Positions 19,540 to 25,190 of a DNA stretch of 64,000 bases are shown here, piece by piece. The notes under the pieces were generated by a model. It was not told the DNA's origin. It did no database searches and worked only from the letters and a program-made list of their open reading frames with translations. Made by a program: the position numbers and the translations under genes. Within the stretch, counting starts at the first letter, position 1, and each line of letters opens with the position of its first letter. The DNA is from an uncultured Candidatus Rokubacteria bacterium. Its GTDB lineage: Bacteria; Methylomirabilota; Methylomirabilia; Rokubacteriales; CSP1-6. The stretch is from positions 32,001 through 96,000 of the forward strand of contig CAVVEU010000040.1 in assembly GCA_963747235.1 (NCBI GenBank), read 5' to 3'.

Positions 19540-20322
19540 CTACCGGCGGAGCACCCGGCGCATGCCCCGGTCCACCAGCCCCGGCGCGAGGACGCTCATC
19601 ACCGCCAGGATGCGCACCGGCCAGTAGGGATAGACCTCCGGGCGGGGCCGACGCACGCAGCGGAGGATCGACCGGGCCACGCGCTCGGCCGACTGCACCG
19701 GGCCCATGGGCCGCCACCGCACCTTCTGGACCTCGGTCTCCGAGAACTCGGTCCCGGTGGTGCGGATGGGGTACACGAGCGTCACCGCGATCCCCGTCCC
19801 GGTCAGCTCCACCCGGAGCGCCTCGCTCAGCGCGCCCAGGGCGAACTTGGTCGCGCTGTAGGCCGAGCGGTAGGGCACCGCGCGGCGCCCGACGACGGAC
19901 GAGATGTTGACGACGTGGCCGCTCCCCTGCCGCCGCATGATGGGCAGCGCCGCCTGGGTGGCGCCGAGCACCGCGACCACGTTCAGCTCCATCAGGTCGC
20001 GCAGCTCCTCGGCGGTGGTCTGCTCGAGCGTGGCCGCGAACCCCCGCCCTGCGTTGTTGACCAGCACGTCGAGCCGCCCCCAGCGCGCGGCGACCTCGTC
20101 CACCATGGCGCGCATCGCGAGGGCATCCGTCACGTCCACCGCGTGCACGGTGACCTCGCTCCCTCGCGCGGTCAACTCGGCCGCGAGCTGCTCCAGGCGA
20201 TCCTTGCGGCGCGCGCAGAGCGCCACGCGCAGCCCCGCGCCCGCGAAGACCCGCGCGGTGGCCGCCCCGATGCCCGATGATGCCCCCGTGACGAGCGCGA
20301 CGCGCCCGCGGGGGTCACCCAC
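19540..20322 (-). CDS. Short-chain dehydrogenase/reductase
   Basis: VTGASSGIG, LVNNAG, ISSVVG, YSATK. Confidence 0.92.
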   Translation of the reverse strand: MGDPRGRVALVTGASSGIGAATARVFAGAGLRVALCARRKDRLEQLAAELTARGSEVTVHAVDVTDALAMRAMVDEVAARWGRLDVLVNNAGRGFAATLEQTTAEELRDLMELNVVAVLGATQAALPIMRRQGSGHVVNISSVVGRRAVPYRSAYSATKFALGALSEALRVELTGTGIAVTLVYPIRTTGTEFSETEVQKVRWRPMGPVQSAERVARSILRCVRRPRPEVYPYWPVRILAVMSVLAPGLVDRGMRRVLRR

Positions 20323-20725
20323 GGCGGGAGCGGCCGAGCATGCAGGAGATCTGGTAGCGGTGGCGCGCCACCCACGCGTAGACGCGCGGCGCGAGCAGCT
20401 CCACGCCGGGCAAGCGGAAGGCCTGCGCCAGCCAGCGCCAGCCACGCAGACGCCGGAGGATCTCGGGGATCGCGGCGTCGCCCGCGAGCACGCGGCCGTC
20501 CGGCAGGATGAGCTGCATGGCCTGCAGGCAGGTGCCCTCGCCCATCCACGGGTAGCGCGCGCGTCGCTCGGCCGCCTGACAGGGCAAGAACTCGAAGTGC
20601 CCCGCCACCGCCCGCCGCGAGAGCCACGCCACCCCACCGCGGCAGAGGCCGCAGGTGCCGTCGTAGATGAGGACGGCCCGCGCGCGGGAAGCCGGGGCCT
20701 GGGGGACTTCCAGCTTGGAGGTCAT
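20315..20725 (-). CDS. DCC/DUF393 thiol-disulfide oxidoreductase family protein
   Basis: IYDGTCGLC (DxxCxLC), YAWVARHRY. Confidence 0.88.
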   Translation of the reverse strand: MTSKLEVPQAPASRARAVLIYDGTCGLCRGGVAWLSRRAVAGHFEFLPCQAAERRARYPWMGEGTCLQAMQLILPDGRVLAGDAAIPEILRRLRGWRWLAQAFRLPGVELLAPRVYAWVARHRYQISCMLGRSRRG

Positions 20726-20752
20726 CGGCCGCTATTGTACGCCCGCCGCGCG

Positions 20753-21967
20753 TCAGCGGTAGGCGCAGGGCGGCACGTTCGTTTTCCAGGCTCCTTGCGT
20801 GAGGTGCTCGCCGTGCGGGAAGAGGCGGAGCTGCTCGGCGGGCAGCACGGCCCTCATGCGACGGCCTCGCAGGGTCAGGAAGAAGCCCGCCCGCCCCGCG
20901 TCCACGCCGAGACGGCGGAGGTCCTGCGCGTCGCGTGGCAGCGTGCGCCGGCGCTCGGTGACGAGGCGACGCGCCGCGGTAGGCCCGATGCCGGGCACGC
21001 GCAGCAGGAGCTCGTAGGGCGCGCGCTCCAGCGCCACCGGGAACTGCTCGGCGTGGGCCAGGGCCCAGGCCGTCTTCGGATCGTGGTCGAGCGCCAGGTT
21101 GCCGTCGCCGCCGAACACGAGCTCCTCCGCCCGGAAGCCGTACTGTCGCAGCAGGTGCTCGGCCTGGTAGAGCCGCCATTCACGCGCGGCCGGCGTGGGC
21201 GGGAGCCCTTCCATCGGCGTCCCGGCCACCGGCTGGAAGGCGCTGAAGTGAGCATGATGGAGGAGGCCGCGCCGCTCGAGACCCCCCACCACGTTCAGGA
21301 TCTCGCGGTCCTGCTCGCCCTGGGCGCCCACCACGAACTGCGTCGTGGTGCCCGCCGCTGCGATGCCCGCCCGCCCCTCGAGCCGCGCCTCGCGGGAGAG
21401 ACGGCCGGCCAGCATCAGGTTCGGGAGCAGGTCACCCGAGTAGTTCTTCTCCCTGGCCAGGCCACGGACCACCGTGTCGTTGGGCCCCTCCAGATTCACC
21501 GAGACGCGCGTGGCCAGGCGGGTGGCCTGCACGACCTGCTCCTGCTCGGCCCCGGGCAGCAGCTTGATGTGGATGTAGCCGGCGAAGCCTTCGCGCTTCC
21601 TCAGGACCTCGATCGCGGCCAGCATGCGGTCCACCGCGCGTGGGGCGCGGCCCGGTACGCCGGAGGTGAGGAACAGGCCCTGTGCCACCCCCGCACGATG
21701 CGACTCCATGAACGTGCGCGCGACCTCCTCGGGCGACAGCGCGGTCCGCTTCACGCGCCCGCCGCAGAAGGTCGGGCAGTAGCCGCAGGAGAGCGAGCAG
21801 GCATTGGTCTGCATCACCCGCATCAGCGTCGTGGACCCGCCCCCGGGGAGGCGCACCGGACGGATCCCGACCGGGCCTTCGTTCAGGCGCGGCCGGCCGG
21901 GCAGGCCGGTCTCCTTGTCGTCCGAGGCCGCCTCCGAGAGGATCGCCAGGCGCTGTCGTCGGTCCAT
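20753..21967 (-). CDS. Putative DNA modification/repair radical SAM protein with HhH motif
   Basis: TNACSLSCGYC, GLFLTSGV, YIHIKLLPG, SVNLE, TQFVVG, FSAFQP, RLYQAEHLLRQYGF, LLRVPGIG. Confidence 0.92.
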   Translation of the reverse strand: MDRRQRLAILSEAASDDKETGLPGRPRLNEGPVGIRPVRLPGGGSTTLMRVMQTNACSLSCGYCPTFCGGRVKRTALSPEEVARTFMESHRAGVAQGLFLTSGVPGRAPRAVDRMLAAIEVLRKREGFAGYIHIKLLPGAEQEQVVQATRLATRVSVNLEGPNDTVVRGLAREKNYSGDLLPNLMLAGRLSREARLEGRAGIAAAGTTTQFVVGAQGEQDREILNVVGGLERRGLLHHAHFSAFQPVAGTPMEGLPPTPAAREWRLYQAEHLLRQYGFRAEELVFGGDGNLALDHDPKTAWALAHAEQFPVALERAPYELLLRVPGIGPTAARRLVTERRRTLPRDAQDLRRLGVDAGRAGFFLTLRGRRMRAVLPAEQLRLFPHGEHLTQGAWKTNVPPCAYR

Positions 21968-21972
21968 GGCAG

Positions 21973-21992
21973 ATACTAAACACACGACGAGT
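21973..21992. promoter_or_regulatory. Candidate operator copy 2 over the radical SAM -10 box
   Basis: ATACTAAACACACGACGAGT; lies within the GATACT-N12-AGTATC inverted repeat 21972-21995. Confidence 0.6.
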
Positions 21993-22021
21993 ATCAAAGC
22001 AAGTGCGGTAGAATCGCCACC

Positions 22022-22619: not shown

Positions 22620-23975
22620 TCAGATACCCGTGACGGCCTTGATCGAGTCGCGGGTGACCGAGACGAGGCGGTCCACCTGCTCCTCGCTGACGATCAGCGG
22701 CGGGGCGAAGAAGATGTGCTCGAGGCGGGCGCGCGTGATCACGCCGCGCTTGGTCATCTCGGCCAGCACGCGCGGGCCGACCTTCTTGTCGGCGCCGAAC
22801 GGCGCCTTCGTCCCGCGGTCCTCCACCAGCTCGACGGCGGCCAGCAGGCCCTTGCCGCCCCGGATGTCGCCCACGTGCTTGTGGTCGCCGAGCGCCTGCT
22901 GCAGGCCCTTGTGGAGCCGCGTGCCCATGGCCGCCGCGCGCTCCCAGAGCCGCTCGCGCTCCATGATCTCGAGGTTCTTGAGGCCCACCGCGCAGCAGGT
23001 GGGATGCCCCGAGTAGGTGTAGGCGTGCATCCACTTGTCTTCCGGCTTCACCTCGTCCATGGCTTGCTTGATCGCCTTCGAGACCATGATGCCGCCGAGC
23101 GGGAGGTACCCGGAGGAAATGCCCTTCGCGAAGGAGACCATATCCGGGAGCACGTTCCAGTGCTCGAGCGCGAACCACTTGCCGGTCCGACAGAAACCGG
23201 TGATGACCTCGTCGGCGATGAAGAGCACGTTGTGCTTGTCGCAGACCTTGCGCACCAGCGGGAAGTAGTCGTCGGTCGGGTAGAGCACCCCGCCGCCACC
23301 GTGAATCGGCTCGGCGATGAAGGCGGCCACCGTGTCCGCCCCTTCCCGGACGATCGCCTCCTCGAGCAGGCGCGCGGCGGTCTGCCCCGCGGTCTCGCCC
23401 GGCTTGGAGCCCTCCTGACGGTACGGATAACACGTTGGAATATGCACGAAGCCCGGCACGCGCGGCTCGAACATCTTCCAGTAGGCCGCCATGCCGGTGG
23501 CGCTCATCGCCTGCAGGGTCACGCCGTGATAGGCGAGGCTGCGCGCGATGATCTTCACCTTGTCGGGCTTGCCCTTGGTCTTCCAGTAGAAGCGCGCGGT
23601 CTTGAACGCGGACTCGTTGGACTCGGCGCCGCCCGAGGTGAAGAACACGCCCTGCATGTTGGGATACGCGATCGTCATCAGCTTGGAGGCGAGCTGGATG
23701 GCCGGGATATTGGTCGAGCCCGAGTACGCGGAGTAGTAGGCCAGCTCGCGCATCTGCTCGGCCGCCGCGTCCGCCAGCTCGGCGCGGCCGTGGCCCACGT
23801 TCACGTTCCAGAGCCCGGCGAGGCCGTCGATGTACTCGCGGCCCTGCACGTCGGTCAGCACGGCGCCGCGGCCGCGCACGTAGACCATCGGCTCCAGATG
23901 ATCGCTCGGGTGATGCAGCGGGTGGATCAGATGGTCCTGGTCGTCCTTGATGAGCTGCGCTGCCTCGAGCGGCAT
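22620..23975 (-). CDS. Class III PLP aminotransferase (putrescine/omega-amino acid type)
   Basis: YIDGLAGLWNVNVGHGR, TSGGAESNE, AYHG, FIADEVITGFCRTG, SFAKG, HAYTYSGHP. Confidence 0.93.
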   Translation of the reverse strand: MPLEAAQLIKDDQDHLIHPLHHPSDHLEPMVYVRGRGAVLTDVQGREYIDGLAGLWNVNVGHGRAELADAAAEQMRELAYYSAYSGSTNIPAIQLASKLMTIAYPNMQGVFFTSGGAESNESAFKTARFYWKTKGKPDKVKIIARSLAYHGVTLQAMSATGMAAYWKMFEPRVPGFVHIPTCYPYRQEGSKPGETAGQTAARLLEEAIVREGADTVAAFIAEPIHGGGGVLYPTDDYFPLVRKVCDKHNVLFIADEVITGFCRTGKWFALEHWNVLPDMVSFAKGISSGYLPLGGIMVSKAIKQAMDEVKPEDKWMHAYTYSGHPTCCAVGLKNLEIMERERLWERAAAMGTRLHKGLQQALGDHKHVGDIRGGKGLLAAVELVEDRGTKAPFGADKKVGPRVLAEMTKRGVITRARLEHIFFAPPLIVSEEQVDRLVSVTRDSIKAVTGI

Positions 23976-23985
23976 CGGGCGCCTC

Positions 23986-24415
23986 CTACAGGCTCTGGTG
24001 ATAGATGGACGTCGCGGGCGCGTGCGCCCGGTAGTCACCACCCGGAATGGGCACGCCCCGATCGAGCGGACCGATGTACCAGTAGATGGAGGCGGCCAGC
24101 TCGCGGCCGGCCTCGCTCCGGACGGTGACTACCCGGCGATGATACTGGGGTCCCTCCGCCGAGTCCAGCGCCGCCCACAGCGCCGGATCCACGACCCGGT
24201 AGACCTCGCCGTGGATCGCGACCTCGGGATCGGGCACCGCGCCCGGATACGAGCCGAGATCGACGATCCGTGCCCGCACCTGCCCGCGTCCGACGAAGCT
24301 CGGCGCGTCCCGTGAGCAGCCGATGCAGGCGGAAACCGCGCATCAGCGTCCCGTAGGTGAAGAGGAGCGCGGGCTTACTTCCCGCGATCGCGGGACTCGG
24401 CCTCTTGCTCCTCAC
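23986..24415 (-). CDS. Gamma-glutamylcyclotransferase (AIG2-like); indel near 24299; start uncertain
   Basis: LFTYGTLMRG, DLGSYPGA, IHGEVY, LDSAEG..Y.R, GGDY. Confidence 0.85.
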
Positions 24416-24527
24416 GGGAGCATCCGGCGGGCGAGGCTCAGGTCTGGATGCCGAAGCGCGGCAGGACCCAGCGGCTGAGCGCGACCCAGCCGACCAGGAT
24501 ACCGATGACGATGAGCGCGGATTCCAT
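24375..24527 (-). CDS. Putative 50-aa membrane selenoprotein (Sec30): MESALIVIGILVGWVALSRWVLPRFGIQT-U-ASPAGCSREEQEAESRDRGK
   Basis: Single TM helix, in-frame TGA at 24438-24440, SECIS-like hairpin immediately 3', Cys six residues after U, TAA stop; adjacent to a clear selenoprotein. Confidence 0.7.
24400..24437 (-). promoter_or_regulatory. Bacterial SECIS-like hairpin of the microprotein
   Basis: GCCUC...GCUCC[CGUGA]GGAGC-AA-GAGGC; apical loop begins 21 nt after the UGA, with G at loop position 2 followed by U. Confidence 0.7.
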
Positions 24528-24533
24528 CGCCGC

Positions 24534-25190
24534 TCAGGCCTCCGGGTCCGGAGCGACCGCCTGGAGCACCGCGCCCAGGAAGTCACGCTCCGGGATCGCG
24601 CCCTCGAAGCCGACCTTGTCGTTGATGACGATCTTGGGGACGGCCATCACCTGGTAGCGCTGGGCGAGCTCGGGGAACTCGGTGGCCTCGATGCACTCCG
24701 CCCGCACCTTCGGCGACGCGATCGCCATGTGCTGCGCCAGGCGCACGGCCCGGGGGCAGTGGGGTCAGGTCGGGGTCGTGAAGACCTTGATCGTGACGTC
24801 CTCGGTGAGCCCGGCCAGCGCCGTCTTGGTCTCCTCGCTCAGGCCCGCCTCCCCGGTGGACACCGCGACGATGGAGTCGATCAGGTTGGAGAACTCGTAG
24901 CCGCCCGGCAGCCCGAGGAAGCGAATGCCGTAGTCCTGTGCCCCCTCCACCACGATCGCGGGCGACTCGCTGATCCCGTACGCGGCGGCCTGGTCCCGCT
25001 CGATGTGCGGGTTCAGCACCGCCACGGAGAGCTGGTCGGACAGCGCCGCCACCTCGCGGACCAGGGCCACCGTCTGGGCATTGTGCTCGCCGCCCAGCTC
25101 GGAGGCGAACACGGTCAGCTTCACCGGCCCGCCGAGGCGCTCGAACTCCTTCCGGACCGCGGCCTCGTCCTGTGCGGAGAGAAAGCCCAT
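24534..25190 (-). CDS. Selenocysteine-containing protein-disulfide oxidoreductase (AhpF-NTD/PDO-like two-thioredoxin fold, UxxC), 218 aa
   Basis: ORFs 24765..25190 and 24534..24746 are one frame: VFTTPT-TGA-PHCPRAV; IRFLGLPGGYEF, YQVMAVPKIVIN, FEGA. Confidence 0.93.
24732..24764 (-). promoter_or_regulatory. Bacterial SECIS-like hairpin of the oxidoreductase
   Basis: CUGC-CC-CCGGGC[CGUGC]GCCUGG-C-GCAG; apical loop begins 17 nt after the UGA. Confidence 0.7.

Follow-up and report, generated by a model that had tools for sequence, protein, structure and literature searches.

A 50-codon gene with an in-frame UGA in a Rokubacteria contig: a probable member of a large, unnamed family of single-helix Sec/Cys membrane microproteins

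The gene and its predicted product

The window analysed here, a 64,000-nucleotide stretch of an uncultured Candidatus Rokubacteria genome, contains a short open reading frame with a single in-frame TGA, set between the genes of a selenocysteine (Sec)-containing protein disulfide oxidoreductase (PDO) and a gamma-glutamylcyclotransferase-like (GGCT) protein. Is this TGA decoded as Sec or does it end a 29-residue peptide, and, if it is decoded, what might a protein of one helix and one Sec do? The frame runs on the minus strand from an ATG at 24527 to a TAA at 24377–24375, comprises 50 codons with the TGA as codon 30 (24440–24438), and starts 6 nt past the PDO stop codon (24536–24534). A preliminary description, made from the letters alone, had given this spacing and the same translation and had left the strand unstated. 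It had also called the gene unannotated. Public gene callers do call it, yet only as a 29-residue hypothetical protein that stops at the TGA; the database entry P0224 is such a protein, 100% identical and ending at that codon. Close relatives carry the labels Rokubacteria or Methylomirabilota. The features that the following sections refer to are:

22620..23975, minus strand: class III aminotransferase gene (PF00202), co-oriented downstream, candidate member of the same operon
23986..24415, minus strand: GGCT-like gene (PF06094, E 1.4e-14), downstream, split by a frameshift in the assembly
24375..24527, minus strand: candidate 50-codon membrane micro-selenoprotein gene, encoding a transmembrane helix, a conserved RWxLPxxG[IV]xT-U core and a variable charged tail, ending in TAA
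24406..24422, minus strand: candidate upper stem-loop of a bacterial SECIS element, with the loop CGUGA at 24416–24412, 21 nt past the UGA, proposed from the hairpins of relatives
24438..24440, minus strand: in-frame TGA, putative Sec codon 30, from homologous loci, Cys homologues and selA co-occurrence
24456..24524, minus strand: predicted single N-terminal transmembrane or interface helix, residues 2–24 (AlphaFold, hydropathy)
24534..25190, minus strand: PDO gene with a Sec UxxC motif, upstream of the microprotein gene (TIGR02187, 254 bits against a cut-off of 185)
24539..24543, minus strand: GGAGG, by its sequence a putative ribosome-binding site, within the end of the PDO gene
24767–24765, minus strand: in-frame TGA of the PDO gene (UPHC), with a SECIS hairpin at 24753–24737, 17 nt downstream

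A scan for promoters and terminators gave results at chance level, and in six RNA runs a small share of the sequence words was present (0.10–0.14).

AlphaFold predicts one confident helix over residues 2–24 (pLDDT 86–89 over residues 1–20) and a remainder of low confidence, and the best 19-residue hydropathy is 2.17, both of which support the single transmembrane helix first read from the sequence. A lipoprotein signal was ruled out by inspection against the lipoprotein consensus, as there is no basic n-region and no lipobox. Foldseek returned 0 matches in the PDB, a result of little weight given that the model is only a helix, and a search of the ESM Atlas with a Cys homologue as query gave one "hypothetical protein" cluster at 0.85, which we treat as a lead only.

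Across the family, the hydrophobic helix is followed by the consensus RWVLPxxG[IV]xT-U/C-MSGxC. The P, G, T and U/C positions are invariant in 58 aligned members, and the W and L are conserved in more than 90%. The U-x5-C spacing that had been proposed as the motif proved to be the variant of the PDO-linked copies of Methylomirabilota, and the motif of the family is U/C-x4-C: C-x4-C occurs in 110 of 132 Cys homologues and U-x4-C in 39 of 52 Sec copies outside the PDO operon. Of the 77 PDO-linked copies, 62 have the x5 Cys, whose codon forms part of the SECIS stem, and 15 lack it; a second Cys is also missing in 10 of the 52 non-PDO Sec loci, so that a two-residue redox pair is not obligatory. 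The C-terminal flank of the helix is more positive than the N-terminal flank in 218 of 224 proteins, which by the positive-inside rule would turn the U/C position toward the cytoplasm. It is thus likely that the helix is N-out/C-in with the PxxGxxT-U/C segment at the cytoplasmic face of the membrane, the tail being a disordered by-product shaped in part by the SECIS element.

Decoding of the in-frame UGA

We examined the site in 129 non-redundant loci from genomes and metagenomes, collected in a first round. Exact duplicates were dropped before the count, as were three look-alikes inside long proteins (L033, L201, L202) and four rows without a profile match (L034, L035, L064, L065). All 129 loci have TGA at the site, and no TAA or TAG was found there among the 129 + 51 + 32 matches examined. 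At the protein level, 257 matches to a query that favoured Cys comprise 132 with Cys at the site, 116 that end there, 5 with Trp and 4 with other residues. The TGA thus aligns with TGA or with Cys, and the Cys homologues continue past the site, as would be expected from the reading in the preliminary description. Sites were read codon by codon in 50 Planctomycetia loci, which hold 51 of 104 matches, and in 30 of the 77 matches from Acidobacteriota, with the remainder taken from the "stops inside" column of the search program. In Planctomycetia, TGY stands at the site in 19 of the 51 copies read, and a hairpin follows 28 of 31 TGA copies versus 5 of 20 non-TGA copies; all 32 loci read in Acidobacteriota and Chloroflexota, three of which repeat earlier loci, have both TGA and hairpin. 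One Cys copy (L230 1523, genome G357) and one Sec copy (L245 1588, genome G521) are identical at 186 of 207 nt. The Cys copy lies in a genome without selA and retains the hairpin, and by sequence comparison the pair reads as a recent Sec-to-Cys change.

Hairpins were scored with our own script of the published constraints rather than with bSECISearch, requiring a G in the first two loop positions and a distance of 16–37 nt downstream. The upper hairpin in the window, UGCUCC[CGUGA]GGAGCA, has 6 pairs and a predicted energy of -8.1 kcal/mol, and its stem overlaps the codon of the second Cys (24422–24420). The local fold by itself is mildly unusual (z -1.6 to -2.0, with 7–11 of 200 shuffles equally good); the strength of the hairpin as evidence is the comparison across relatives, not the fold taken alone. 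A perfect hairpin of -5 kcal/mol or below with a loop G follows the site in 126 of 129 loci versus 299 of 1032 control TGAs (other TGAs of the same loci). At -7.5 kcal/mol, counting perfect stems only, the figures are 90 of 129 and 141 of 1032. These hairpins fall into 36 stem/loop sequence classes, which means that the structure is kept while the sequence changes. Furthermore, seven of the 129 loci have one codon inserted before the TGA, with the hairpin still 21 nt past it. The preliminary description had proposed a lower stem (GCCUC/GAGGC) in addition to this upper stem. The upper stem and its 21-nt distance stand, but the lower stem is poorly conserved: it can form here, but the minimum-energy fold of the 38 nt does not contain it together with the upper stem, and among 69 relatives of the same loop class all 5 pairs are kept in 9 and at least 4 in 33. 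Codons 36–40 have no third-position variation in 49 equal-length loci, and codons 31–35 vary most at third positions; the best explanation of the SREE stretch conserved in close relatives is a constraint on the RNA. Of these 49 loci, 46 terminate with TAG or TAA and not with TGA.

The genome has the machinery for Sec insertion. Matches to selA and selB exceed their cut-offs, and a tRNA-Sec (TCA) and selD are present, so that all four genes whose presence had been put forward as a check (selA, selB, selC and selD) are matched. On contigs C8 and C27, assembly frameshifts break up the selD matches, one of which has a UxxK motif. Only 15 of the genome's 114,341 TGAs fit a filter for the loop class, among them those of this gene and of the PDO and four others that lie in motifs of a recognisable Cys type. 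Other probable Sec codons with the same class of hairpin lie at C4:60670 (minus), C8:471346 (plus), C13:173979 (plus) and C14:47414 (minus) of the same genome (G000) and at L011; the motifs at these further sites are CxxU, UxxC and UGC, plus a Sec-type SelD.

Planctomycetia provide the decisive test for Sec, because selA is patchy there (173 of 301 genomes). Sec use in some Planctomycetes is confirmed in PMC4807772. Genomes with a TGA-containing match have and lack selA in 70 and 4 cases, versus 1 and 15 for matches without TGA (p 1.3e-12); such p-values overstate, as the genomes are related, yet the pattern repeats in separate phyla. After two loci were re-read, with G482 moved to the Cys group and G305, a degenerate TGG copy, set aside, selA is found in 70 of 72 TGA genomes versus 1 of 17 Cys-only genomes, this one being G428. 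All 76 Acidobacteriota carriers have TGA in the match, and selA occurs in 75 of them versus 121 of 175 non-carriers, a background that takes in the unpublished genome G578. The TGA form is thus found in Sec-using genomes with three exceptions: L243 1588 (G386) and L268 2088 (G349) carry TGA at this position in genomes where neither selA nor selB exceeds its cut-off, which speaks against a strict rule, and the Acidobacteriota carrier G773 has no selA match. These three may be relics after loss of Sec use, or incomplete genomes. In the phylum of the window, selA occurs in 50 of 56 carriers versus 215 of all 251 genomes, a comparison that is uninformative because so many genomes there have selA.

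Carriers of the family number 58 of 251 genomes in the window's own phylum (56 after two look-alikes were dropped), 93 of 301 in Planctomycetia, 76 of 251 in Acidobacteriota and 2 of 251 in Chloroflexota, and 3330 proteins match the family at E 0.01. On the comparative evidence, the codon UGA30 is almost certainly read by SelB and tRNA-Sec, directed by the hairpin 21 nt downstream, to give a 50-residue selenoprotein. The proposal of a SECIS element and of Sec recoding is supported in this respect by the hairpins of the 126 loci. Sequence comparison likewise gives good support for placing the microprotein in a large family without a name, whose members are single-helix membrane microproteins with Sec or Cys.

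Gene neighbourhood and possible roles

The PDO in the window scores above the curated TIGR02187 cut-off and has the UxxC motif, and in related loci the motif residue is U in 75 of 75 motif matches. Pairing of the microprotein with this Sec-PDO had been suggested from the window alone. It holds in 77 of the 129 loci, where the PDO gene lies upstream, and these 77 look like one lineage, Methylomirabilota; the pairing is lineage-specific, and other lineages have other neighbours. A GGCT-like gene is usually downstream in the PDO-linked loci. In the window this gene changes frame at about 24330–24300 (minus strand), and its split and those of the two selD matches suggest that the assembly contains indel errors. 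The GTG in the SECIS loop (24415–24413, minus strand) is the only in-frame ATG, GTG or TTG for the GGCT gene here. In L054 (1588–1700, genome G013), a one-base shift past the TGA brings the microprotein and the GGCT gene into one reading frame, and a paired change is found in the SECIS stem; the arrangement is either a real fusion or an assembly error. The aminotransferase gene probably belongs to the same operon. On the same strand, 2–4 kb downstream (20315–21997), lie a DCC1-like thiol-disulfide oxidoreductase gene and a TIGR03916-like radical SAM gene. No sulfur-detoxification gene adjoins the window's own locus.

We also considered a PDO–microprotein fusion made by readthrough of the terminal TGA of the PDO gene, which is in frame here. 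This was rejected, as no hairpin follows that TGA (-1.4 kcal/mol) and an in-frame TGA occurs in only 7 of 75 related loci. Across these 75 loci, PDO genes in frame with the microprotein terminate with TAG or TAA in 29 of 36 cases, and those out of frame with TGA in 37 of 39, a pattern that ancestry alone may explain.

Outside the PDO lineage, 103 loci have within 1.5 kb genes for MBL-rhodanese (24), rhodanese (25), ArsR-family regulators (22), YgaP (14), RND/HlyD (12), ECF or anti-sigma factors (11), SQR-like proteins (10), TauE (9) and thioredoxin (9), where "SQR-like" denotes PF07992 plus a position beside MBL-rhodanese genes. Some of these loci adjoin RND, cation-efflux or ECF-sigma genes, and 45 of the 103 lack every sulfur, thiol or regulator gene tested. 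A sulfur set, defined as MBL-rhodanese, rhodanese, TauE, SQR-like, YeeE, DUF1641, DUF302 or YgaP within 1.5 kb, is present in 36 of the 103 loci versus 13 of 1836 windows of this genome, an enrichment that is inflated because these very loci supplied the queries and a single genome from another phylum served as the control. With the same queries, 32 later loci have the sulfur set in 13 and thioredoxin in 7. According to PMC9163753, operons that combine sqr with persulfide dioxygenase and rhodanese genes keep sulfane sulfur and disulfide stress in check, and thioredoxin is a sulfane acceptor. Three proteins fuse the transmembrane motif to a thioredoxin domain (P0052, P0262 and P0263) and one fuses it to rhodanese. 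All are singletons (single-member clusters), two of the three thioredoxin fusions are close relatives, and these fusions could be stop-loss read-throughs; they lend indirect support to the microprotein as a putative partner of a thioredoxin-fold protein.

These observations suggest the following mechanism. UGA30 would be decoded as Sec by SelB and tRNA-Sec under the direction of the hairpin, and the N-out/C-in helix would hold the PxxGxxT-U/C segment at the cytoplasmic face. The selenol or thiol, as a reactive nucleophile, would then accept sulfane sulfur or an oxidising equivalent at the membrane, the bound state being a perselenide or persulfide, or a U–C bond with the x4 or x5 Cys. Re-reduction would come from a thioredoxin-fold protein, which in this operon would be the co-encoded Sec-PDO, and the microprotein, tethered to the membrane, would serve as a carrier or sink in the handling of reactive sulfur and disulfide stress. 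Granted recoding and topology, we lean slightly toward this uptake and re-reduction in a carrier or sink role. To the whole chain, from Sec recoding through topology and a reactive selenol to thioredoxin-fold re-reduction, we give a probability of about one half. More speculatively, and rather doubtful as it stands, a minimal membrane-tethered selenol could be the missing membrane-side sulfane-sulfur acceptor that passes from SQR-, TauE- or YgaP-type handling to thioredoxin, with the SECIS loop perhaps also starting GGCT.

Alternatively, the product could be a real selenoprotein whose U/C(-x4-C) site serves efflux systems by binding or sensing soft metals or metalloids (Cu, Zn, Hg, As) at the membrane. 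The RND/HlyD genes (near 7 of the 32 later loci as well as the 12 of 103) and the 22 ArsR-family regulators would fit such a role, as would CsoR-family, cation-efflux and zinc-ribbon neighbours and the extra Cys found in the tail of many Cys homologues; several predicted selenoproteins in PMC13188914 are also transport-associated. However, rhodanese, persulfide dioxygenase, SQR-like, TauE and YgaP neighbours are commoner, and the fusions found are to thioredoxin and rhodanese, and we consider a metal-binding function unlikely. The ArsR and CsoR families moreover include persulfide sensors, which counts against it.

A real selenoprotein might instead be an accessory or anchoring subunit of TauE, YeeE, YgaP, SQR or RND, with U/C as a regulatory switch and not a cycling carrier. 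The invariant P, G and T and the nearly invariant W and L sit at the end of the helix, suggesting a packing surface, and TauE or SQR-like genes often follow the gene directly. The lineages do not all share a single partner, however, and the 77 PDO-linked loci have a soluble PDO and mostly a soluble GGCT as neighbours; a subunit of this kind is at best a minor candidate.

It is improbable that the gene is mainly a regulatory leader, in which Sec-dependent readthrough controls translation of GGCT, perhaps from the GUG of the SECIS loop. Among 55 loci with a nearby GGCT motif, this GTG is the sole ordinary in-frame start (ATG, GTG or TTG) in 28, and its frame is kept in 44 over 10 spacer lengths, but 11 have GGCT in other frames. 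GGCT is downstream in one lineage only, the protein motif is kept in Cys versions without a UGA, and SelB recognition alone explains the GUG, which has no clear ribosome-binding site before it.

Finally, that the TGA is a true stop and the product the 29-residue peptide of the public annotation is very improbable: of 1064 long ORFs in this genome 617 end in TGA, the commonest stop, two selA-less genomes have the TGA form and the tail is poorly conserved across phyla, but TAA or TAG is never found at the site in the matches examined, the Cys homologues run through it, and hairpin and selA track the TGA form.

The locus thus very probably holds, on sequence grounds, a genuine gene for a selenoprotein, one of a large family absent from the catalogues checked, with a function that its context would place in reactive-sulfur handling. 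The family would add a large member to the bacterial selenoproteome in a place where gene callers record a 29-residue hypothetical protein. Because Sec and Cys forms both occur in nature and a switch between them is recent, the family offers a small model in which the reasons for using Sec can be tested. If the assignment is true, it would be among the most widespread yet uncatalogued bacterial selenoproteins, in about 30% of sampled Acidobacteriota and Planctomycetia genomes, and a start codon in the SECIS loop, if real, would couple GGCT translation to Sec decoding in this lineage.

Comparison with known families

The statement in the preliminary description that the protein belongs to no family with a name agrees with our searches of catalogued selenoprotein families. 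NCBIfam (20.0) and Pfam gave no match for the protein or for 23 Sec and 20 Cys members (chance-level best E at least 0.01), the exception being the thioredoxin domain of the fusion P0052. A PDB sequence search gave nothing below E 0.15, and Rfam gave nothing at gathering level. The 119-family Table 1 of a 2026 review (PMC13188914, in the part available) lists PDO and nothing recognisable by description as the microprotein. The motif strings retrieved no paper, and other literature listings came without a description of the family; Haft and Tolstoy 2025, the BSepDB supplement and a groundwater deep-Sep study lie outside this scope and could list it, the families of Haft and Tolstoy being covered only through the table of the review and NCBIfam. 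In the portions of the papers that we used, PMC13326102 collects only previously reported selenoprotein families, and PMC12013277 names nine new families, none described like the microprotein; NCBIfam models, none of which matched, are given for its three hypothetical families.

The catalogued TIGR02187 PDO (an AhpF N-terminal homologue with UxxC) is an upstream neighbour with no sequence relationship to the microprotein. The YgaP-like transmembrane domain (DUF2892, PF11127) is also a small membrane protein with a Cys near a helix end and occurs in sulfur clusters, and YgaP-like genes are found near the family as separate genes (14 of 103 and 10 of 32 loci). Homology was rejected, as that domain has two helices, there is no Pfam match, and the profile–profile probability is 0.5%, albeit from a shallow 9-sequence profile. 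The eukaryotic selenoproteins K and S have one N-terminal transmembrane helix and a Sec in a disordered cytosolic tail. Their Sec is near the C-terminus and far from the helix, and their SECIS elements lie in the 3'-UTR; with no Pfam match, the likeness to the microprotein is an architectural analogy only.

In the Sec form of the YeeE/YedE thiosulfate transporter (GUxSG, from Table 1 of the review, PMC13188914, as far as available), U/C-x-S-G resembles the T-U/C-M-S-G of the family, and both have a sulfur context. YeeE/YedE is, however, a multi-pass transporter, 23 members gave no Pfam match, and the window copy reads U-A-S-P, which leaves a likeness of four residues. The candidate is closest in decoding to the SelB/bSECIS selenoproteins, as modelled in the legend of Fig. 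2 in the same partial source: an in-frame UGA, a hairpin inside the reading frame, a G among the first two nucleotides of a loop of 3–9 nt, a spacing within 16–37 nt, the predicted energy of -8.1 kcal/mol and the existence of Cys homologues. Unlike it, none of the 119 listed families, to the extent of that source, is described as a 50-residue single-helix membrane protein or with this motif. The recoding mechanism is ordinary, and the architecture of one helix and one Sec is what sets the family apart from those listed.
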